Source of the DNA: a virus
Lineage: Duplodnaviria; Heunggongvirae; Uroviricota; Caudoviricetes
DNA length: 19,963 bases
IMG/VR virus record: IMGVR_UViG_3300025162_000035
Strand: one strand, 5' to 3'
A model generated the notes under the pieces. That model made no database searches and was not told the origin of the DNA. It worked only from the letters and a program-made list of their open reading frames with translations. Shown here one piece after another: positions 2,450 to 19,963 of this stretch (within the stretch, counting starts at the first letter, position 1; every line of letters begins with the position of its first letter). Made by a program: the position numbers and the translations under genes.

Positions 2450-2486
2450 AAGCTATATATAATTTTTTATTTTTTATATATAGGCT

Positions 2487-4759: not shown

Positions 4760-5788
4760 CAAAGAAACACAGGTTGTTGGTTTACAATTATTATAAAATT
4801 TTTCATTCATACTTTTATTATATTGAAAAGAAATATAATCATTTTCTTCACAGTATTTTTCTAATGATTCTTTTTTGGGTATAATTGTTTTATAATAATA
4901 ATCCCATTTCCTTTGTAAATCTTTATTAGATATTATTGTCTTACATTCAACAATATAAATTCCTTGTGTTGTTGTTATTTTGAAATCTGGGTTATATTTT
5001 TTGGTTATACCATCAATTACAAAATTTATTAAAAAATTACATCTTTCTATATTTAAAACTACAAAATTTTTCTCAAAGTAATTCAAACAACTATATTCAA
5101 CTTTAGAATCACATCTTATTAATTTATCCTTGTATTTATAGCGGCATTTTATACTTTTTAATTTTGGTTTAAATATGCCATCTTTTATTTTATTGCTCAC
5201 AAGTTTAGATAAATTTTCTTTTATTTCTTTTGTCATTGAACCTTTTGATGCACAACTAACACTACAATATTTTTGTTTATTTCTTCTTACCCATTTAGAT
5301 TTGTATTCTTTATGACAGTATTCACAATTTTTTTCAACATATTTTGGATTTGTGTTTTTTATAGTCTTTATTTTAATTTTTTTATTTTCAAATCTTTTTT
5401 TAGATGCACAACTAACACTACAAAATTTCCTATGCCTGACACTCCATTTTAATTCAAATTCTGAATTACAATATAGACACACTTTTTTAATTGTATCTGG
5501 TAAGCCTTTTTTTAAAGTGATTCTAATTTTATTTTTTGTTTTTTCTGGCATTTTTTTATTTTTATTAGTTTTTGATGCAGAACAAGACATCGAACAAAAA
5601 GTATTCCTTCTTTTATCATATTCAATTATATTTGAACAATTTAAACATAATTTTGGTTTTTTATTATAAATATCTATTCTATTTTTTTTAAGAACTTTTA
5701 TTTTCTCTAAAGATTTTTGGTTAGCCTTTTTATTATTTTCGAAAATTTTACCAGATTTATAATAATCCGAATTTTTAATACTTGCCAT
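4757..5788 (-). CDS. Putative free-standing endonuclease: three Cys4 Zn-binding repeats plus C-terminal TnsA-like PD-(D/E)XK domain
   Basis: Three CxxC...F/YCSxSC repeats; C-terminal RCDSKVE...YNPDFKI...YIVECK. Confidence 0.7.
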   Translation of the reverse strand: MASIKNSDYYKSGKIFENNKKANQKSLEKIKVLKKNRIDIYNKKPKLCLNCSNIIEYDKRRNTFCSMSCSASKTNKNKKMPEKTKNKIRITLKKGLPDTIKKVCLYCNSEFELKWSVRHRKFCSVSCASKKRFENKKIKIKTIKNTNPKYVEKNCEYCHKEYKSKWVRRNKQKYCSVSCASKGSMTKEIKENLSKLVSNKIKDGIFKPKLKSIKCRYKYKDKLIRCDSKVEYSCLNYFEKNFVVLNIERCNFLINFVIDGITKKYNPDFKITTTQGIYIVECKTIISNKDLQRKWDYYYKTIIPKKESLEKYCEENDYISFQYNKSMNEKFYNNCKPTTCVSL

Positions 5789-6025: not shown

Positions 6026-6409
6026 TTAAAGATCAAATTTTTTACCAGTGGTTTGGCTTTTAATATCTTTAAGTAATTGGATGATTTCAGGTGTAGGATC
6101 GTGGATTACAATTTTTCGGAAGTCTGGAATTTTGGCACCCATCGGTGCGCCATTATAATCGAAGTTCACCCAGACCCCGTCTCTATCATCACTTTGAATT
6201 TTTGTGATCACTTTTTTTATATTTGGAGTTTTGGTTGAATCATAGAACGAGATCGTTCTACCTACAATTAGTTTATTCAGATATTCCATAAAACGTTTGA
6301 AGTCGTAGGTATCTTCTTTGGAATGCCCGAATAATTTTCTTAGATCGGATATATGGAAGTAGGTTCCAGTGTCTGATGGTCGTTTAAAGTCTTCGAATAT
6401 TGTGATCAT
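6026..6409 (-). CDS. Hypothetical protein, paralog of the 9986-12834 array family
   Basis: Start reassigned to MITIFEDF at 6409; F.I.D...F, L..L.VG.TI and I.IHD.P...KKFDL motifs shared with array members. Confidence 0.8.
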   Translation of the reverse strand: MITIFEDFKRPSDTGTYFHISDLRKLFGHSKEDTYDFKRFMEYLNKLIVGRTISFYDSTKTPNIKKVITKIQSDDRDGVWVNFDYNGAPMGAKIPDFRKIVIHDPTPEIIQLLKDIKSQTTGKKFDL

Positions 6410-6585: not shown

Positions 6586-6930
6586 TTAAAGATCAAATCT
6601 TTTAGTTATCAAATTTCGATTATAATTTTCAATTGCTTTTTTTGCTGCACGAATATCGGGCCCACGATAAAGGACTTTAAGTGGATTATCAGTGACTTCG
6701 GTATAAACTCCTGTTGGGAGTCGATACATTTTCCATTTTCTTTTTGTAGCTTTTGTATTTAGATCAAAAACATCAGCAGAAGTTATTATCCCGTAACCAT
6801 TATCATAGGTTTTTGTTATTTTTACAATTAGTAGATCACCATCATCACAAAGTAAAGAGAAATAATCGCCTTCAGCAAAAGATGCTATTTTGGATATATC
6901 TGACATATAATTTTCAAACTTTTTGATCAT
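6586..6930 (-). CDS. Hypothetical protein, MIKKFE.../...KRFDL family
   Basis: 114 aa, family termini. Confidence 0.8.
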   Translation of the reverse strand: MIKKFENYMSDISKIASFAEGDYFSLLCDDGDLLIVKITKTYDNGYGIITSADVFDLNTKATKRKWKMYRLPTGVYTEVTDNPLKVLYRGPDIRAAKKAIENYNRNLITKRFDL

Positions 6931-7186: not shown

Positions 7187-7933
7187 TTAGTTTTGTAATA
7201 CCCAGAAGTCATAAGCAAGACCTTTGGTGAAGTAAGTGTATGGTAAATAAAAATATCCATGATCACCCCAGCTTGCGCCCCAAGAATTTCGGCACACAAA
7301 CCATTTCTTATCATCATTATAACCGATTATAAGGACAGCATGACCACCTAAAAGTTGTTCACTTTTTTTTGGTAGTGGAACTTTGCCAGTTTTTGCTACT
7401 GCGGCTGATTCAAATGATTCATAAACATCCATCCCAGTTAAAACTGGTTTTTGTTGAAGAACCAAAACTTGTTTAATTTGATCCTGAGTTGCTACTGAAA
7501 TATATGATTTTATTTTATATTTCAAAGCATTTGTAACGGCAGCGTTTGTTGGGGTAACAGCAAATTTTGTGATATCATATGGGAAATAAGACTCTTCACA
7601 GATACCATAAGTTTGCATTGCTTTACCAATGTCCCTCATTTGTGCTCCACCGTCTTGAGAAATGTCACCTTCAATCTTTCTTTCTTCGAAATATTGAAAA
7701 AGACGAGAAAGATTAACTGTTAATTTATTTAGCATCACTCGTGCAGCAACACCAGCGTTAGCAGTGCAGCTACCCAATTGTCCTTGGTCATATACAAGTG
7801 GGCATTGTGCAATTAGAGTGAATATTTTGGGTATTGTAATTTTAACTGAAGGGTGTATATCTAACACGGATTTTAATTGAAGGTCCCTTTCATCTGGGGT
7901 TTGCTTCTTTAAATTATATATGTGGTTTGCCAT
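7187..7933 (-). CDS. Papain-like cysteine peptidase (C1 family)
   Basis: DQGQLGSCTANA (Gln, Cys), GGHAVLIIGY (His), RNSWG (Asn); start reassigned to MANH at 7933. Confidence 0.92.
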   Translation of the reverse strand: MANHIYNLKKQTPDERDLQLKSVLDIHPSVKITIPKIFTLIAQCPLVYDQGQLGSCTANAGVAARVMLNKLTVNLSRLFQYFEERKIEGDISQDGGAQMRDIGKAMQTYGICEESYFPYDITKFAVTPTNAAVTNALKYKIKSYISVATQDQIKQVLVLQQKPVLTGMDVYESFESAAVAKTGKVPLPKKSEQLLGGHAVLIIGYNDDKKWFVCRNSWGASWGDHGYFYLPYTYFTKGLAYDFWVLQN

Positions 7934-7962
7934 AGTTTTTTTTTTTATTGTATATATTAATT

Positions 7963-7970
7963 TACCTTTG
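7963..7970 (+). promoter_or_regulatory. Bacteroidota-type -7 promoter element TAnnTTTG
   Basis: TACCTTTG ending 17 nt upstream of ATG 7987. Confidence 0.45.
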
Positions 7971-7986
7971 TACAAAATGTGAATTT

Positions 7987-8660: not shown

Positions 8661-8750
8661 GTACAGTTAGTCAAGAGGTCGAAGACATCAGACTGTTAAT
8701 CTGACGCAGCGAAAGCTCCACCATAGGTTCAAATCCTATACTGTACGCCA
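8661..8750 (+). tRNA. tRNA with Asn(GUU) anticodon and long variable arm
   Basis: Acceptor GTACAGT/ACTGTAC, G73-CCA, TCAGA-CTGTTAA-TCTGA, variable hairpin AGC-GAAA-GCT. Confidence 0.88.
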
Positions 8751-8756
8751 TTAAAT

Positions 8757-8841
8757 GCACCGTTATCCGAGTGGTCGAAGGAATCAGGTTGTTACCCTGC
8801 CGAGCTACGGCTCCACGTGAGTTCGAATCTTACACGGTGCG
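8757..8841 (+). tRNA. tRNA with Asn(GUU) anticodon and long variable arm
   Basis: Acceptor GCACCGT/ACGGTGC, CAGG-TTGTTAC-CCTG, variable hairpin GAGC-TACG-GCTC. Confidence 0.85.
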
Positions 8842-8842
8842 C

Positions 8843-9060: not shown

Positions 9061-9085
9061 TTTTTTTATTTTAATATATATGTTC

Positions 9086-9649
9086 ATGAAGTATATTAAA
9101 ATGTTTGAAGAAATGAAATCGTGGGATATTGCTAAGTATTTCGAAGAGTTGAGAGATGCGATGACTGCTGGCAAATTGGATAAAGTAAATAGTATTATTT
9201 TTGAAGCCCCTGACGTTGTTTTTTGGCAAGATAATGATAATAGTGCTGGATGGACAGCTCTTATGTGGGGGGTGGCTGACCACACTGACACAAAAGTTGA
9301 CATAATCAAAGTCTTAATTAATGCTGGGTCTAATGTTAATGCTACTGATAATTTTGGATGCACTGCTTTAATTCATGCCGCAACTATTGATTTAGATAGA
9401 TCAACTGATAAACATCAAGCCTTAGGACAAACTAAAGAAATTCTTAAATTGTTATTAGATTCTGGTGCTAATCCATATATTAAAGATTTTGAACCAGATG
9501 AGGATGAAAAATATTATGTAAATTATACAGGCGGAGAGGATTGGTATGATCATGCGACTCCAGATATTAAACAATGGATTGAAGAAAATTGCCCAGAGTT
9601 TTGGGCAAAGAAGAGACGTGAATTGGCTCAGAAAAGGTTTGATTTATAA
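9086..9649 (+). CDS. Ankyrin-repeat protein with MKYIKMFEE/KRFDL termini
   Basis: GWTALMWG...IIKVLINAGSNVNATDNFGCTALIHAA...ILKLLLDSGANPYIKD. Confidence 0.9.
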   Translation: MKYIKMFEEMKSWDIAKYFEELRDAMTAGKLDKVNSIIFEAPDVVFWQDNDNSAGWTALMWGVADHTDTKVDIIKVLINAGSNVNATDNFGCTALIHAATIDLDRSTDKHQALGQTKEILKLLLDSGANPYIKDFEPDEDEKYYVNYTGGEDWYDHATPDIKQWIEENCPEFWAKKRRELAQKRFDL

Positions 9650-9668: not shown

Positions 9669-9753
9669 GTTGCATTATGCAAGCGGTTAAAGCAGTAAGG
9701 CTCTCAACCTTACCCCTTTACAGGGTTCGTGGGTTCAAATCCCACATGCAATA
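9669..9753 (+). tRNA. tRNA with Glu(CUC) anticodon and long variable arm
   Basis: Acceptor GTTGCAT/ATGCAAT, TAAGG-CTCTCAA-CCTTA, variable hairpin CCCT-TTAC-AGGG. Confidence 0.87.
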
Positions 9754-9754
9754 C

Positions 9755-9985: not shown

Positions 9986-10408
9986 CTACAAATCAAATCG
10001 TTGTTGGGTTTTTTGTCGTTCTATTTCTGTTAGAACATTTTTTGCAAAAGCACGAAGCTCATCATAAATGAATAATACTGTAGTGTCGTCAAGGGCGTAT
10101 GCCATTTCAGAACCATCAGAATTTGTAATTCCATCAAAATATACTACCCAAAGCAGACTTCGATCTTTATCCTTATTAAAAAATGCTTTATTGTTTTTTT
10201 CTAAATCTATTTTTGAAACAATACCATGTTGCTCAATACTATCTGATCGTCTCAAATGAATTTCTTTATTCAGAAGTAATGATCGTAGAAATTTTTCTTC
10301 TTTATATGAATCCCAATCTTTTTTTGATGTTATATAATCAAACACATCACAAATATTTACGGTGTATTTATGTTTTTTATATTCTTCAAATAGTTTAATA
10401 TGTATCAT
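9986..10408 (-). CDS. Tandem-array paralog (MIHIKLFE/QRFDL)
   Basis: Family termini and core motifs. Confidence 0.88.
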   Translation of the reverse strand: MIHIKLFEEYKKHKYTVNICDVFDYITSKKDWDSYKEEKFLRSLLLNKEIHLRRSDSIEQHGIVSKIDLEKNNKAFFNKDKDRSLLWVVYFDGITNSDGSEMAYALDDTTVLFIYDELRAFAKNVLTEIERQKTQQRFDL

Positions 10409-10791
10409 AGATCAAATCTATTTTCTGTTTTACGTTTTCTTATTTCGTTGAACACTTTCTTTGCTTCTTCAGAAATTTCATCATAAACACCAATTTTAGT
10501 GGTTAGCCCTATAACTGCGGATGTTGTTTTTGTACCAAAGTAAAAATAATAAACGTCAATTTGTGGATGTTTAATGTTGGTAAGAATTTTTTCTACAGAT
10601 AAATATACTCCGCTTGAAAGAAGCCTAATCTTTTTACCTATCAAATTTTTTTCTATAAAATCTTCTGACCAATATAGATGATGAAGTGGGCTCACATCAA
10701 AATATGAATCTAATTCCCCAATGGTAAATAAAAATTTTGGGGAGCCAATATCTAAATTATCTAAATCTTCAAATAATTTCAAATATCTCAT
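10405..10791 (-). CDS. Tandem-array paralog (MRYLKLFE/NRFDL)
   Basis: Family termini; ATGA overlap. Confidence 0.88.
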   Translation of the reverse strand: MRYLKLFEDLDNLDIGSPKFLFTIGELDSYFDVSPLHHLYWSEDFIEKNLIGKKIRLLSSGVYLSVEKILTNIKHPQIDVYYFYFGTKTTSAVIGLTTKIGVYDEISEEAKKVFNEIRKRKTENRFDL

Positions 10792-11198
10792 AGATCAAAT
10801 CTTTTTTGAATGTTAATGTTGGCAATTATCTTTCTTAAATCGTTTGGAATTTCGTCATAAATATCTATTGTATTTTCTCTATTCGGATAGACCCACGAAT
10901 CATCTTCCATTAGAAAGTAGTATGCGAATTTATCATTTTGAATCCTAACATCAATATTAATTACATCTTTAGGTTTAAGGGTGATATTGTTCACCAATAT
11001 AGTTTTATGAAGTAGAGTTTTTCTTAAGAATATTGTTATAAGATCAATAGCATCCCATTCCATATCTGGCACTATTTCATTCCATTCTGGTGATACGACA
11101 CCACGCTTATATTTGGTTGATGTAAAAAATGATTCTATATCTCCAATATTAATTGAATATTTTGGTGTAGTGTCTTCAAATAACTTCAAATATTTCAT
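10788..11198 (-). CDS. Tandem-array paralog (MKYLKLFE/KRFDL)
   Basis: Family termini; ATGA overlap. Confidence 0.88.
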   Translation of the reverse strand: MKYLKLFEDTTPKYSINIGDIESFFTSTKYKRGVVSPEWNEIVPDMEWDAIDLITIFLRKTLLHKTILVNNITLKPKDVINIDVRIQNDKFAYYFLMEDDSWVYPNRENTIDIYDEIPNDLRKIIANINIQKRFDL

Positions 11199-11635
11199 AG
11201 ATCAAATCTTTTTCCTATAAATGTTGCTGATAAGTTTTTCATATATGGCTGGTTATATAGTTTATCAAAACTCCCAATGACTTTAAATCTATCGATTTCT
11301 GTTAATGATTTTTTCACTAATTCTTTCTCCTGAATTGGTATTAAATAAGAAACATCATCATTTGCAAAAGTTCTTTTTAAATATTTTTCTAACTCATTTC
11401 TATTTTCTACAGATAAAGATTTTTTTGATATTCTATATGTTTCTAAAAAAATTCCGTCTAAATTTATTATGAGTGCTTGCTGGTGTGACCAATTTTTCAT
11501 ACTTGTATAATAAGTAAACCTGATATTATCGAGATTAAGTAACCAATAATTTATTTCTATGGTTTTTTGTAATTCATAGAATATTTTTTTCAAAGGTTCC
11601 ATATCATAGCTTTCAAATAATTTCAAATATTTCAT
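11195..11635 (-). CDS. Array gene with family termini but divergent core
   Basis: MKYLKLFE/KRFDL; lacks the clear IYDEIP motif of its neighbours. Confidence 0.85.
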   Translation of the reverse strand: MKYLKLFESYDMEPLKKIFYELQKTIEINYWLLNLDNIRFTYYTSMKNWSHQQALIINLDGIFLETYRISKKSLSVENRNELEKYLKRTFANDDVSYLIPIQEKELVKKSLTEIDRFKVIGSFDKLYNQPYMKNLSATFIGKRFDL

Positions 11636-12054
11636 AGGTCGAATCTTTCTTGAGTTTTTATTTTTTCAATATCTTCCAGTATTCTTTTTGATTTAACTGG
11701 AATATCATCATAAATATTAATTTTGGTTGCTTCTCCTATATCAGTTTTTAAATTAAATGATTTTCTATCATTTTTAAAATATACAGTAAATACCAGAGAA
11801 TATCCAAAGCTTTTATTTGCGGTAATATCTTTAACCGTGTATTCATATTGACTAATATTATCATTGATTATATCCACTTTTTTTCCGATGAGTGTTTTCT
11901 TTAAAAATTCCAGTGCATCAATTTTGGATTTGGTCCATATAAAATCATTTGTTTTGGTATCATCTGATATTTTATTATAAAAATATTCTCCTATATCATA
12001 AAGTTTAAATGAGTGCAGTGGCTTCACATTTTCAAACAATTTCAAATATTTCAT
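11632..12054 (-). CDS. Tandem-array paralog (MKYLKLFE/ERFDL)
   Basis: Family termini; INIYDDIP motif. Confidence 0.88.
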   Translation of the reverse strand: MKYLKLFENVKPLHSFKLYDIGEYFYNKISDDTKTNDFIWTKSKIDALEFLKKTLIGKKVDIINDNISQYEYTVKDITANKSFGYSLVFTVYFKNDRKSFNLKTDIGEATKINIYDDIPVKSKRILEDIEKIKTQERFDL

Positions 12055-12437
12055 AGATCAAATCTTTTTTGTGTATTCATCTTTTTAATTTTGAGAAGTA
12101 CTTTTTTGGATTCTTCTGGAATTTCATCATATACTTGTACAGTTCCAGTTGGATTTAAGTATGGAAATATTTTCTTATTATCTATCATATTGATGCCACA
12201 TATTTTAAATTGATAAAACTGAGCTTCTATCGCTGCTTCTTGATTAGTATAATTAATAGTTTTAACTCTAACCATAGGGGTAATAAATTTAACTTTTAGC
12301 CTGTTGCCGATCAAAGTCGTTCTTAAGAATTTTAAAATTTCATTAGCATCATTGAAATATTCAATAACATCTTCCATTTTGAATATGTATAATGGAGATA
12401 AATTTATATCGTTTTCAAACAATTTCAAATATTTCAT
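12051..12437 (-). CDS. Tandem-array paralog (MKYLKLFE/KRFDL)
   Basis: Family termini; VQVYDEIP motif. Confidence 0.88.
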   Translation of the reverse strand: MKYLKLFENDINLSPLYIFKMEDVIEYFNDANEILKFLRTTLIGNRLKVKFITPMVRVKTINYTNQEAAIEAQFYQFKICGINMIDNKKIFPYLNPTGTVQVYDEIPEESKKVLLKIKKMNTQKRFDL

Positions 12438-12450
12438 ACGTTATTATTTT

Positions 12451-12834
12451 TTAAAGGTCGAACCTACTCCCTATTTTATTGCTTTTTATTTCTTTGAATA
12501 TTTTTACAAGTTCTGGATCATCTGGGTAATCAACCGTAATTATAGATTTAGATTCGACAGCATATGGCATACCACTAATAAAGTAGAAAGTATATTCATA
12601 TGCTATCCAAGGAACGTTAAATCTGACATTTTCAACGTCTATATTGGTTAGTTTGGCTCTAATTTCTGTTTCATTTCTTTTTGAAGAATATTTAACTTCT
12701 TTATTTAGCAATAGCTTATTCAATATATATTTGGCATTACCAATATCTATATTATGTTTTTTAAAATATTCTTCCAAATCACCAAATTTGAAGATCAACT
12801 TATTAACATTTTCAAACAATTTCAAATATTTCAT
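12451..12834 (-). CDS. Tandem-array paralog (MKYLKLFE/SRFDL), first gene of the array
   Basis: Family termini; preceded by TTTTATATATA on the minus strand. Confidence 0.88.
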   Translation of the reverse strand: MKYLKLFENVNKLIFKFGDLEEYFKKHNIDIGNAKYILNKLLLNKEVKYSSKRNETEIRAKLTNIDVENVRFNVPWIAYEYTFYFISGMPYAVESKSIITVDYPDDPELVKIFKEIKSNKIGSRFDL

Positions 12835-12866
12835 ATCGATATATATAAAATATCAAAATAAAAAAT

Positions 12867-13115: not shown

Positions 13116-14666
13116 ATGAAAACTATCAAAACCTCTAATAAAATATATTGGGCTCCATCTGATTTTTTGGAAGTGCTAAATAAGTTGAATTCGTCTCCAA
13201 CATCCTCATTAACTGCCAACAATAAATCAACCGATGGATTAAATATTGATGAAATTACAGGTAAGAAAATCATGATTCTTCATCGTTGTGTTAAAGAGGG
13301 GTCTAATACAACATTGAGATTAAAAGAAATAGCAGACAATATATTATCAGGAAAATGGGATCGTCACCCATTTCGTCAACGACCATTCACTTGGAAAGAT
13401 TCGAGGCAAATTCCATTTATTACAACTCTTTTAAAAAATTGCATTAAAAGTAGTACTAATGGATCAATGGCTATTGCTCCTATCTTTATCACCAAAAACA
13501 TTGAAGATAAAACTTACGTGGATGACGGATGGCAAAGGAGTAGTACTATACATCGGTTTGTGTATGGAAATCTTGAAATAAAGGGATATGATGCAGCATG
13601 GATTATTGGATTTTTCATTTTTCAGTTTATTGAATGTGCCAATAATGAATATCACCCAAACAGAAAATATTTTGTTGATACTCTGAAAAACCTTCATGCT
13701 GGGAATTTCAAAAAATTGGTCATTACGTATAAAAATCTTCCAGAATCGGTAAAAAATGAGTTTGATGATTTAGTAATGTCTGTACGTCATTTAATCATTG
13801 AGACAAGTACTTATGATTTTGAAACTGGTAAGATAACAATACGTCAGCAAGATTTAACAACAGAAAGCCCATTATGGGAGTGGTTTGTGAATGTTCAATT
13901 AGGTCAGGAAGCTATGACTAAGAAAGATGTTATCATGGCAATTCAAAATGATATCAATTATAAAACAATTGATATCAGTTATGATTTATCTACATTCTTT
14001 TTCAAAGATTCATATCAAGGACGAATGATAAATCAATCATTAATAGAAGCCTTATTATGTGTAACTGGAAAGGCTGCTATGAATAACACAAAGCAATCAA
14101 TCGATTATTTGAATAAGAACAGATTTCATGACTCCAAAAGTCCTGAGATGTTATTACTTCAAAAATTAGATTGGAATGTAAGATTGTTTTATAAAAACCA
14201 TTCAAATAGATTCAACGATTGCAAATTTAAAATGTCGCTAACTGATCTTAAATTTTATTGGTATTTATTATTATCTAATTGGGATAAATTATATTCAACT
14301 AACGGTGATGTTAGATTCCCTTTTACTTATAGTAATGAAATAAATAAAAATTATTTCAAATTTTTAGAAGTTTTAAGAGATATATCAGGTATTATCAGTA
14401 AAATAAGAAATGTTTATGATTCTAAATTGGGAAAGAAACCGTCCCAAAAAGAAATTAATGAAGTTTATGAATATGCTCTAACAATTGGTGACGATAAATT
14501 AAAGATGTTTACTATTACATATTTGACATCCTTGGTTGATTTTGCATCATTAACAAGAAATACTAAAAAGTTTTCAGCTTTTTTAAAAAATGAGGATGTG
14601 AAATTAAAAATCGATAAGATTATAGATTGTATTATTGAGCACTATAAATTTAAAAGAATAAATTAA
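13116..14666 (+). CDS. DUF262-like (ParB/sulfiredoxin fold) domain protein
   Basis: HPFRQRPFTW...FITTLLK...APIFI...YVDDGWQRSSTIHRF resembles the DUF262 QRxYxW...DGQQRxTT signature. Confidence 0.65.
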   Translation: MKTIKTSNKIYWAPSDFLEVLNKLNSSPTSSLTANNKSTDGLNIDEITGKKIMILHRCVKEGSNTTLRLKEIADNILSGKWDRHPFRQRPFTWKDSRQIPFITTLLKNCIKSSTNGSMAIAPIFITKNIEDKTYVDDGWQRSSTIHRFVYGNLEIKGYDAAWIIGFFIFQFIECANNEYHPNRKYFVDTLKNLHAGNFKKLVITYKNLPESVKNEFDDLVMSVRHLIIETSTYDFETGKITIRQQDLTTESPLWEWFVNVQLGQEAMTKKDVIMAIQNDINYKTIDISYDLSTFFFKDSYQGRMINQSLIEALLCVTGKAAMNNTKQSIDYLNKNRFHDSKSPEMLLLQKLDWNVRLFYKNHSNRFNDCKFKMSLTDLKFYWYLLLSNWDKLYSTNGDVRFPFTYSNEINKNYFKFLEVLRDISGIISKIRNVYDSKLGKKPSQKEINEVYEYALTIGDDKLKMFTITYLTSLVDFASLTRNTKKFSAFLKNEDVKLKIDKIIDCIIEHYKFKRIN

Positions 14667-16964: not shown

Positions 16965-17630
16965 ATGATTCTTAAATTAACATTATCCAAAAATACTAAA
17001 ATCGTACCTTTCAATTATGCTATTCTGATTAGAGGTAAACGCCAAGGGTGGCTTGGAAACCAAGATAGGAATAAAATATCGTTATTTACATTTTCTAATA
17101 TATTAGGTGGAATATCAACTCCAAATGGATACAATTTTCCAAATGGTGGTGAAATTTATTTCGGTTATCACGATAAAACAGATATTATAAATATTATTTT
17201 AGCCATAGTAAAAAATAATAATTTTATTTGTGGCATGAAAATTATAAATTTTATTCCTGTAAATTATAATTCAATAACTACGGATGATTTTATCTGTTTA
17301 TCCCCAATTCATTTAGCAAAAAAATCAATTGGTTGGAATTCAAAAAATATACCAGTAACATATAAACATCCAGATAGTAATGTAATATTACAGGATACGA
17401 TGATACGAAAAATGCAAGCTGCTGGTGTTAATAGCAATTATTTTGACATTCAGTTTGATTTATCGGATAATACAAAATATATTAGCTCTATTTCTTATGA
17501 CGATAAAATAATAAAATATAGTGTTTGCTCACTTATCATAAAGGGTACCTCTCAGCAAAAGGAATTTTGTGTGAATGCGGGTGTTGGAAAATCAACAGGA
17601 ATGGGATTTGGATGTGTTTTACCTAAATAA
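16965..17630 (+). CDS. cas6: CRISPR-associated endoribonuclease Cas6
   Basis: C-terminal glycine-rich loop AGVGKSTGMGFGCV; LFTFSNI motif; 221 aa. Confidence 0.88.
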   Translation: MILKLTLSKNTKIVPFNYAILIRGKRQGWLGNQDRNKISLFTFSNILGGISTPNGYNFPNGGEIYFGYHDKTDIINIILAIVKNNNFICGMKIINFIPVNYNSITTDDFICLSPIHLAKKSIGWNSKNIPVTYKHPDSNVILQDTMIRKMQAAGVNSNYFDIQFDLSDNTKYISSISYDDKIIKYSVCSLIIKGTSQQKEFCVNAGVGKSTGMGFGCVLPK

Positions 17631-17639
17631 TTAAAAATT

Positions 17640-18218
17640 ATGTTTGTAGTAGTTTATAAAGGACCGTTTGGATTTATTAAGCCATATGACACTAATCGTG
17701 ATGATTATATCAAAAGTCAGAATTTTCTTTTACCGTCTGCCGTTAAGGGGATAGAATTATATTTATTTCCAGAACTATTAAAAGATAAGACACATATTCT
17801 CAAAAAGATTGTAAGATGTAAAATTAATTTTGATAATATAGTCAAAGATTTGGGAGTAATACAAAGCCCACTTGTTAAAAGAGTAAGTAAAAGGGCTACC
17901 GATAAAATGCATAGTTTTATATTAGCTACCAGTTGTATTGAGCGTGGACTTTTACACAATGTTACTGTATATGTCGGGTTTAATAATATGGATGATGCAT
18001 TAATAGCGTCAAGCAGTCATATTAGAATTAGTGGAAAAGATGAAACTTGTTACCCATCTGGTGACCGAGCTATTGAAATTTCGGATGATGAATTTGATAA
18101 AATAAGCGGGTGGGAATTTAAAGAAACAAGTCAGGATGATCCAAATTCTATTTTAGTTGGTAATAATCGATATAAAAACAATGAAAAAATATATGGAAAA
18201 ATTATCCATACTAAATAA
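17640..18218 (+). CDS. cas5: Cas5-like RAMP protein
   Basis: N-terminal VVYKGPFGFIKP and SQNFLLPSAVKGI resemble the Cas5 N-terminus; lies between cas6 and cas3. Confidence 0.62.
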   Translation: MFVVVYKGPFGFIKPYDTNRDDYIKSQNFLLPSAVKGIELYLFPELLKDKTHILKKIVRCKINFDNIVKDLGVIQSPLVKRVSKRATDKMHSFILATSCIERGLLHNVTVYVGFNNMDDALIASSSHIRISGKDETCYPSGDRAIEISDDEFDKISGWEFKETSQDDPNSILVGNNRYKNNEKIYGKIIHTK

Positions 18219-19963
18219 TATCAGGGCAAAAGGATTGCCTACAAATACTTCTTTATATCAGCATTTACATGATGCTAAAGAATTTATGAAAATTCTGGTG
18301 GAAAATTTAGATTCCACCTTTAATTTTGATTTATCCATATGTATAATAGCTGCTATATTACATGATATTGGAAAGGCTCATCCAGAATTTCAATTTAGGT
18401 TGGATAAACCATACAATCCAGATTGGAATCCGTTTAGGCATGAAATATCATCAATCCTATTCATATCGCTTTTTGATAAAAAGAATTGGGATACTATTAT
18501 AGATATGATCATAGCCCATCATAAATCTATTTATGTAAGAAGCGGCTCAAACATTGGAAGTTTTCACAAAGGAATCTTAACATTACACGACAATTTTGGT
18601 GATGATGTTTTTAATATGCATTGTGGAACCAAAGAAATGTGGGATGTGTGGTCAAAGGATGCGTTAGAAATATTATCTCATTTGGGAATATCAGTTAGAA
18701 ATATATCGTATGATGAAGCCAGACAAAATTATAATTATGTGTTAGATTATTGTCAAAAAATAAAAGATGATAATATTTGTGAAGTATCATATGATAGAGG
18801 ATTAATGAATGCTGCTGATTATATATCATCACATATTGATCAATCAAGAGGAAAAATAAATGAATTGATTGAAAAAATGTTTGTTGTTCCAGATTTTAGT
18901 TTTTATGAAAATCGGAAGAATAAAATGTATCCTTTTTCAATGATGGATATAAATAAAAAAAAGAAAAGAAAGCATACTATTATTATTGGTCCAACAAGTT
19001 CAGGAAAGACGGATATGCTCTCCAGATGTTGTAAAAAACGTGTTTTTTATATTCTTCCATTTCAGGCATCTATTAATGCCATGTATAATAGATTTCGGGC
19101 TGATCTGAATAACCCAGAAAATAAAAATTTAGCCATATCTTTATTACATGCAAATGCACAAAGTGTCTTAAATAACAATAATGATATATCGAGCCACGTA
19201 TTAAAAAATAAAATAGGTTGTGGGCTAAAGGTCTTAACACCTTATCAAATTTCAAAAATTCTTATTGGAGGAACAGGTTATGAGCAATTAATTTTAGATT
19301 TAGCTGGGCAAGATGTAATTATGGATGAAAATCAATGCTATAATGAAAGATCGAAGCCATTTATTTTAACTTTAGTTAAAGCTCTCGATAAGATTGGTTG
19401 CAATATTCATTTTGGTACTGCAACTATGCCTTCGGACTTAAAAAAGAAAATATTGAAGATTTTAGGACGTAACAACGTTGATGTAATAGAATTATCAAGA
19501 AAACAAAAAGCTGAATTTGACAGGCATATTGTATATAAAAGAAATTCTTTTGATGATTGTACGGATGCTATTAATGATGCGGTTTTACAAAATAAAAAAG
19601 TTTTAGTTGTTGCTAATACAATCGATGAATCTATACGTTTATATAAAATATTGAAAAGTAGATATTCAGATAAAAATAAGGTTCTTTTACACAGCCGATT
19701 TAAGCGAAAAAATCGAAATTATAAAGAAACGTTATTGTTCGATAAATCTTTTTTAGCGAATGGCTGTATAGTTGTTTCAACTCAAGTTGTGGAAGTAAGC
19801 TTGGATATAGATTTTGACGTTCTTTTTACTTATTGCTGTCCCTTGGATAGTTTACTACAGCGAATGGGTAGAATAAACAGAAGGCGTGGATTTAACAAAA
19901 TTTGCCCAGTTTATGTCATAAATGTGTATGATACTCCAGCAAAAGAAATGGTTGGTGGGTATA
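18193..19963 (+). CDS. cas3: Cas3 HD nuclease-SF2 helicase, 3' truncated by window edge
   Basis: Read manually (absent from ORF track): YQH, LHDIGK, RHE, AHH, AAD; GPTSSGKT, MDENQ, TATMP, LHSRF, STQVVEVSLDID, QRMGRINR; no stop through base 19963. Confidence 0.92.
   Translation, partial: MEKLSILNNIRAKGLPTNTSLYQHLHDAKEFMKILVENLDSTFNFDLSICIIAAILHDIGKAHPEFQFRLDKPYNPDWNPFRHEISSILFISLFDKKNWDTIIDMIIAHHKSIYVRSGSNIGSFHKGILTLHDNFGDDVFNMHCGTKEMWDVWSKDALEILSHLGISVRNISYDEARQNYNYVLDYCQKIKDDNICEVSYDRGLMNAADYISSHIDQSRGKINELIEKMFVVPDFSFYENRKNKMYPFSMMDINKKKKRKHTIIIGPTSSGKTDMLSRCCKKRVFYILPFQASINAMYNRFRADLNNPENKNLAISLLHANAQSVLNNNNDISSHVLKNKIGCGLKVLTPYQISKILIGGTGYEQLILDLAGQDVIMDENQCYNERSKPFILTLVKALDKIGCNIHFGTATMPSDLKKKILKILGRNNVDVIELSRKQKAEFDRHIVYKRNSFDDCTDAINDAVLQNKKVLVVANTIDESIRLYKILKSRYSDKNKVLLHSRFKRKNRNYKETLLFDKSFLANGCIVVSTQVVEVSLDIDFDVLFTYCCPLDSLLQRMGRINRRRGFNKICPVYVINVYDTPAKEMVGGY

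Follow-up and report, generated by a model that had tools for sequence, protein, structure and literature searches.

A Row of Seven Small Genes with Common Ends

We analyzed a DNA stretch of 19,963 nucleotides (nt) from a tailed virus of the class Caudoviricetes (IMG/VR record IMGVR_UViG_3300025162_000035), hereafter referred to as the window, and focused on a row of seven small open reading frames (ORFs), g1 to g7, that lie on the minus strand within positions 9986-12834 (table 1). A cellular origin of the window can be dismissed; it belongs to an uncultured, huge, very AT-rich freshwater phage, and identical or near-identical contigs were found in stratified freshwater-lake metagenomes, with g1 being 100% identical on at least ten metagenome contigs. 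An earlier note, made from the DNA sequence alone, had described seven genes encoding proteins of 127-146 amino acids (aa) at this place, and our coordinates and lengths agree with that description. At five gene boundaries the genes overlap as ATGA, whereas g1 and g2 are separated by a 13-nt spacer. These seven small genes thus form a translationally coupled row in a variable region that is rich in transfer RNA (tRNA) genes, 14-16 of which are encoded on the plus strand of the window among ORFans.

The N-termini of all seven array proteins follow the pattern M[KRI][YH][LI]KLFE and all seven C-termini read RFDL, a sharing of both start and end that cannot be chance. We henceforth refer to these two peptides as the N-tag and the C-tag. 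The five ATGA junctions form a 35-nt repeat, as the earlier note had reported, and its match counts were confirmed: the copies at 10768 and 11175 are each identical to the copy at 12031 at 33 of 35 positions, the remaining pairs sharing 28-33. The 35-nt repeat is composed of the codons of the C-tag ((K/R)FDL, 4-5 residues), the ATGA overlap, and the codons of the 8-residue N-tag (MKYLKLFE).

Table 1. Positions of Array Genes, Junction Repeats, Further Tagged Genes, and Upstream Boxes (Window Positions unless a Contig Is Named)
Feature	Position	Strand	Description
g1	12451-12834	-	Array's first gene, 127 aa, MKYLKLFEN...GSRFDL; stop TAA, 13 nt ahead of g2
g2	12051-12437	-	128 aa, core-family member; protein modeled with AlphaFold2
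g3	11632-12054	-	140 aa, core-family member; last gene ~100% identical in variant B
g4	11195-11635	-	146 aa, unrelated core between the same two tags
g5	10788-11198	-	136 aa, core-family member
g6	10405-10791	-	128 aa, core-family member
g7	9986-10408	-	140 aa, MIHIKLFEE...QQRFDL; stop TAG
Junction repeat g2/g3	12031-12065	-	RFDL codons, ATGA overlap, MKYLKLFE codons
Junction repeat g3/g4	11612-11646	-	Breakpoint of variant B; left breakpoint of variant C
Junction repeat g4/g5	11175-11209	-	
Junction repeat g5/g6	10768-10802	-	Right breakpoint of variant C
Junction repeat g6/g7	10385-10419	-	Most divergent copy (28-30 of 35)
Dispersed core-family paralog	6026-6409	-	127 aa, MITIFEDF...KKFDL; BLASTP E 1e-7 to g1
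Ankyrin-repeat protein	9086-9649	+	N-tag MKYIKMFEE, C-tag KRFDL
TATATATA box	12839-12847	-	6 nt upstream of g1 start codon; consensus resemblance only
T(T/A)ATATATA boxes, window	12839-12847; 9066-9085; 2450-2467		
T(T/A)ATATATA boxes, related contigs	L011 ~9510-9527; L013 ~4811-4828; L036 763-776		

Between the tags, six of the seven proteins share the core motifs F.I.D...YF, FL.K.LI.K, and IYDEIP at 26-39% identity, and synonymous sites are saturated between the array paralogs. The remaining protein, g4, was not recovered by a hidden Markov model (HMM) built from the family core only, and nothing but its ends matches the other members. Both the common motifs of most members and the one deviating core had been noticed earlier, as had an outlying paralog at 6026-6409, which is real judging by its BLASTP match to g1. 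Six array genes are old paralogs of one lineage-specific alpha/beta family, and g4 is an unrelated cassette.

The tags are not confined to the row. One or both of them are carried by no fewer than eight other ORFs of the window, on both strands: C-termini of the type (K/R)FD(L/M) are found in ORFs ending at 1900, 3353, 4273, 6026, 8373, 9649, and 16172 and in the ORF at 6586-6930, and several of these further tagged ORFs have the N-tag, or the variant form MITKF.LFE, at their start. One encodes an ankyrin-repeat protein that carries both tags, which demonstrates the portability of the tags. They do not continue to the left of the window.

Relatives Differ by Whole Cassettes

The earlier note had proposed that the repeats allow gain, loss, and shuffling of gene modules by homologous recombination. 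Among close relatives, gene number and order are not fixed; the phages differ in which entire cassettes they carry, and the breakpoints fall within the junctions. We distinguish three arrangements. Variant A is that of the window and is represented by many contigs that are 100% identical to it.

Variant C was found in two independent assemblies, L029 (ERZ4201038) and L030 (SRR12676970), in which g1 (97% aa identity), g2 (95%), g3 (94%), and g6 (96%) follow each other in this order and g4 and g5 are absent. The joint between g3 and g6 is a seamless in-frame ATGA overlap with g3-type codons on its left and g6-type codons on its right. We rejected the idea that variant C arose by chimeric assembly because the two assemblies derive from different runs, the strain differs from the window by 2-4%, and the two junctions share exact matches of ~20 nt at most. 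In L029 (6803-7590), g7 loses its similarity after 49 residues and is 81 aa long, and an IS605 OrfB/TnpB gene (PF01385, 4e-19) lies directly downstream of the shortened g7, which indicates that a transposon-type nuclease gene landed in the array.

In variant B (L003), a left block over a GmrSD-like gene is 99.95% identical to the window, and a right block, 99.7% identical, reaches through g3 and 24 nt into the gene that follows. At the place of g4 (L003 3806-3927) there is a 27-codon N-terminal stub that starts with MKYLNLFED and is followed by a short C-terminal remnant of another cassette, ...KFDL, which overlaps the next start codon as ATGA. This collapsed cassette is the footprint of an internal deletion in which both joints were kept. 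The remnant is followed by alleles of g5 and g6 at 80% nucleotide identity (72-75% at the protein level; g5, 72%). A second variant B assembly, ERZ1426660, has the same gene layout up to a gap after g3, a comparison that concerns layout only.

The same ~35 nt at every gene boundary provide in-frame homology for recombination, and on the sequence comparison both variants look as unequal or interlineage homologous recombination in the junction repeats would predict. The closest known mechanism for such turnover is PeSL-mediated shuffling, in which short repeats likewise flank small ORFans, closely related phages differ by whole genes at the repeats, and recombination gives viable in-register products (PMC2839356). 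PeSL elements differ in being intergenic sequences of ~100 bp that hold a sigma-70-like promoter and a terminator, whereas the array repeat is 35 nt long, overlaps coding sequence, and has neither.

Once present, the array genes are maintained by purifying selection. The ratio of nonsynonymous to synonymous substitution rates (dN/dS) of orthologs in variants A and C is 0.15-0.29, that of the divergent g5 and g6 alleles is 0.29 with a dS of 0.5-0.6, and neighboring genes have values of 0.07-0.39. Ongoing diversifying selection is ruled out by the ratios of 0.15-0.29. Calling the genes hypervariable, as had been done before, therefore does not describe them well, since the 26-39% identity reflects old divergence of paralogs and not fast change between strains. 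Given the purifying selection on orthologs, diversity arises from cassette turnover and not from hypermutation.

Peptide Constraint Accounts for Most of the Junction Identity

We asked at which level the junction repeat is conserved. The codons of the C-tag vary synonymously (AGA/AGG/CGA, TTT/TTC, GAT/GAC, and CTA/CTT/TTG), relatives carry conservative replacements in the tags (F/Y, D/N, R/K, and L/I), and tag position 4 is encoded by ATT, ATA, or TTA in distant relatives. Variable codons combined with conservative residue replacements constitute a pattern at the protein level. We also counted how often the same codon is used at aligned positions with an identical residue in two array members and derived the expectation from the codon usage of the window. 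The same-codon fraction was 0.56 in the core, equal to the expected 0.56, 0.43 in the C-tag against an expected 0.51, and 0.81 in the N-tag against an expected 0.60. The excess is thus modest and limited to the N-tag, where it is driven by Leu4, which is encoded by TTG in six of six copies even though TTG makes up 17% of Leu codons.

Junctions were then simulated from the amino acid sequence, codon usage, and the ATGA constraint. The simulated identity was 29.6 +/- 1.9 of 35 bases, and that observed is 32-33, so that peptide constraint and AT bias account for most of the identity, though not for all of it as a purely peptide-based explanation would have it. The residual 2-3 bases within the array suggest that the joints share a common descent or have undergone gene conversion.

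These data bear on a first alternative, namely that the junction repeats are dedicated DNA recombination sites, comparable to attC or PeSL, with the peptides as a side effect. Such sites would explain why cassette gain, loss, and replacement break inside the repeats, and both the N-tag codon excess with its uniform Leu4 codon and the surplus of observed over simulated identity are in their favor. However, tags also occur where there is no tagged neighbor, at the start of g1, the end of g7, the ankyrin gene on the opposite strand, and the paralog at 6026; C-tag codons vary freely; and relatives alter the DNA yet keep the residue type. The junctions moreover have no promoter-terminator module and no attC-like inverted repeats, the one 15-nt inverted pair of the array lying inside g1, and no recombinase gene was found at the junctions or elsewhere in the window. 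No Pfam integrase was detected among the 36 window ORFs scanned. With neither attC-like repeats nor an integrase, integron-like cassettes were rejected, and we consider dedicated sites in general improbable. The junction repeat is kept mainly by selection on the peptides and not as a dedicated DNA site. The proposal that the repeats permit module shuffling thus stands insofar as turnover breakpoints fall in them, but the repeat itself is mainly a by-product of two peptide tags.

A second alternative is that the junction is an expression signal at the RNA level, serving termination-reinitiation or enhancing leaderless or AT-rich starts, and that the peptides are incidental. In the loci collected, 186 of 309 N-tag starts are ATGA-coupled to an upstream C-tag, no Shine-Dalgarno sequence was seen upstream of tagged start codons, and the modest nucleotide excess in the N-tag codons would also fit. 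Yet the C-tag is kept, with differing codons, where nothing follows it (g1, which ends in TAA, g7, which ends in TAG, and the paralog at 6026), the N-tag persists where no gene lies upstream, and replacements are conservative at the amino acid level. We regard this alternative as highly improbable.

The single apparent promoter proposed earlier could not be corroborated: sites resembling sigma-70 promoters show no enrichment (18, with 23.9 expected), and the one candidate signal near g1 is a TATATATA box. No internal minus-strand terminator was found in the array. A T(T/A)ATATATA box is located 5-10 nt upstream of the start codons of stand-alone tagged genes and recurs ahead of uncoupled N-tag starts in metagenome loci (table 1). 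The late promoter of phage T4 is TATAAATA. The T(T/A)ATATATA box is similar to it and would yield nearly leaderless mRNAs.

A Small Core Family and Its Predicted Fold

The core family is very small: when 1.8 billion representatives were searched with a profile, 17 proteins were returned, all 17 of them tagged. An AlphaFold2 model of g2, computed from an 18-row family alignment, has a mean predicted local distance difference test score (pLDDT) of 80 and a predicted template modeling score of 0.72. N-tag residues 1-9 fall below a pLDDT of 50, and in this model the N-tag is predicted to be disordered and to lie outside the folded domain. The C-terminal part of the model is a long helix, and its three final residues (FDL) are coil. 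Its best structural match (VIA-align) is the Sm-like N-terminal domain of Pelota, with a Z score of 9.4 and a root-mean-square deviation of 2.6 Å over 97 residues. Identity between g2 and the Pelota/Dom34 domain is 7-14%, and a Z score of 9.4 is slightly above the usual background of 7-8; we draw no function for g2 from this match. A seven-membered Sm-like ring was rejected because variant C lacks some of the members.

Other searches gave no assignment. Foldseek found no match to the g2 model in PDB and BFVD at E <= 1e-3, Pfam and PHROGs returned nothing significant for the seven array proteins, ESM Atlas gave no usable match, and a PDB sequence search with a 182-aa N-tagged protein returned nothing. 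For the ankyrin protein, AlphaFold run on the single sequence gave a model of insufficient quality for use (pLDDT 49).

Tagged Proteins Are Widespread in Related Huge Phages

When JGI metagenomes were scanned for the junction pattern, matches came from at least 120 stretches; the contigs measure up to 346 kb, and their mean guanine plus cytosine content is 24.6%. Among the matches listed are at least 196 ORFs with both tags and at least 407 tagged proteins in at least 229 core clusters, which include ankyrin repeats, LPX-type leucine-rich repeats, and small SH3-like domains. ATGA-coupled rows with unrelated cores and the same kinds of tags are present on the more distant contigs L014, L016, L031, and L154, with the C-tags KYNL, RFGL, and KFDL. 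The corresponding scan of IMG/VR gave nine matches, of which only L016 is real, and the array had no BLASTN match among 50,697 phage records. A peptide-pattern scan of IMG/VR returned 600 pattern matches, and TBLASTN found no relative among them because the cores differ. We found no published description of these tags in a literature search.

Tagged proteins on related huge-phage contigs include LPX-type leucine-rich repeats (L101 306-932; L134 5054-5527) and many ankyrin proteins. LPX-type leucine-rich repeats occur in bacterial injected effectors.

A Possible Capsid-Targeting Function of the N-tag

A known system with a comparable arrangement is that of the T4 internal proteins, which are likewise small unrelated proteins with a common short leader that starts with MK and contains aromatic residues and Glu (PMC9026906; PMC12373910). 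The T4 internal proteins (Ip) have the leader alone in common, and all three inhibit GmrSD enzymes (PMC12373910). In T4, the first 10 residues are enough for packaging, and L/I-x-E is the motif after which the gp21 protease cleaves (PMC9026906). The leaders, which we read from AF158101, are MKTYQEFIAE and MKTFKEF.... The L-x-E form of the cleavage motif is present in all seven array N-tags as L6-F7-E8. T4 internal proteins are also encoded at variable loci, and ipI adjoins a tRNA cluster, as does the array.

By this analogy, the N-tag may be an address label that, like the T4 capsid targeting sequence, would load proteins into the prohead; the prohead protease would cut it off after Glu8; and the row would be an exchangeable set of injected proteins that serve host takeover or anti-defense. 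We infer this capsid-targeting role only tentatively. The earlier suggestion of an effector or anti-defense array is plausible by the same analogy. Taken as a whole, a tagged cassette row combined with capsid targeting is the best explanation of the locus that we can offer, and we consider it reasonably probable.

A metagenome contig with an N-tagged gene, L036, connects a tag with T4-type head genes, as it encodes Portal_T4 (4.6e-61) and Gp23 (1.9e-24). Between the portal and Gp23 genes lies an ORF of 705 aa (L036 8136-10253) with a gp21-type protease domain and ~11 tandem YSEYIAENLDKNI repeats (YSEYIAEN). The EYIAE of this repeat is nearly the EFIAE of the T4 leader and fits the L/I-x-E cleavage motif.

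Several points weigh against capsid targeting. The T4 leader and the N-tag have in common only M1, K2, a nearby aromatic residue, F7, and a Glu, which is too short a likeness for statistics. Most related phages carry a tag of the type MKYIK(T/K)FE, which has no L/I at P3 of the T4 motif, and the C-tag has no T4 counterpart. The L036 ORF matches Peptidase_S77 at 6.5e-5 with 22.9 bits, below the Pfam cut-off of 27, and L036 is tied to the window phage only via one frameshifted N-tagged gene. At the N-tag, some nucleotide-level homogenization or constraint is possible, as judged from Leu4 being TTG in six of six copies. Differences in scale and kinship are also evident: ATGA-coupled rows and a far larger tagged set, with hundreds of cores in related phages, set these genes apart from the T4 system, and no array protein has sequence homology to any Ip protein.

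The ejection proteins of phiKZ- and SPN3US-like phages offer another comparison, being numerous, head-internal, and often paralogous, with a gp21-related protease that cuts after Glu (PMC9026906). They are, however, large proteins with long propeptides and have no common 8-residue N-tag, no C-tag, and no ATGA-coupled mini-cassettes.

The points raised by the C-tag and by the relatives' N-tags lead to a third alternative, in which the tags are labels for a partner other than the capsid, such as a chaperone, a protease or degron that times removal, a clamp-like hub, or the tagged proteins themselves in mutual co-assembly, and the proteins act inside the cell without being packaged. The aromatic-D/N-Leu-COOH end of the C-tag resembles a C-terminal docking peptide, the missing L/I at P3 in most relatives would be of no consequence, and ~55% of tagged proteins are acidic, with an isoelectric point below 6, and not uniformly basic. 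No candidate partner was identified, though, and an N-tag that is disordered in the model and ends in Glu, the presence of T4-type head genes on L036, and the location at a tRNA cluster fit internal proteins at least as well. We therefore think that labels for such a partner are unlikely. Capsid targeting can also be combined with a role for the second tag in a two-label system: the N-tag would load small binders into the capsid for injection, the C-tag would dock a second partner, the tag-coding DNA would provide the in-frame joints, and populations would reshuffle their effector library cassette by cassette. We find this fuller version doubtful.

Neighboring Genes

Divergent from the array, the window encodes a GmrSD_N/DUF262 protein of 516 aa (13116-14666, plus strand; Pfam 2.6e-5, below the cut-off). 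The corresponding protein is 464 aa in L003, and the gene is absent from L029, which has ORFans of 169 aa and 100 aa there. A GmrSD_N/DUF262 gene near the array is worth noting because the leader-tagged Ip proteins of T4 inhibit GmrSD enzymes. The phage also carries type I CRISPR-Cas genes at 16965-19962 (plus strand), namely Cas6 (4.4e-10) and the HD-helicase Cas3 (3.5e-30), and related contigs carry more genes downstream of Cas6/Cas3. An untagged papain-family cysteine protease (Peptidase_C1, 7.7e-18) is encoded at 7187-7975 (minus strand) amid tRNA genes and tagged genes. Some tRNA genes are unusually long (Asn, 86-90 nt; Glu, 84-86 nt; 8661-8842, 9669-9754, and 1109-1192), which suggests introns or extra arms.

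Implications

The variants show a set of proteins that changes via in-frame swaps of whole cassettes at tag-coding joints and not via rapid point mutation, which adds a new design to what is known of internal-protein loci in T4 and of shuffling by PeSL. Should the tags prove to be address labels, the entire set of proteins that a large group of huge uncultured phages delivers into its hosts could be recognized by a short motif in the sequence alone. The delivered set would then be a pool of likely anti-defense and host-takeover factors that are today unannotated, and the tags could be of practical use in loading phage heads with foreign proteins.

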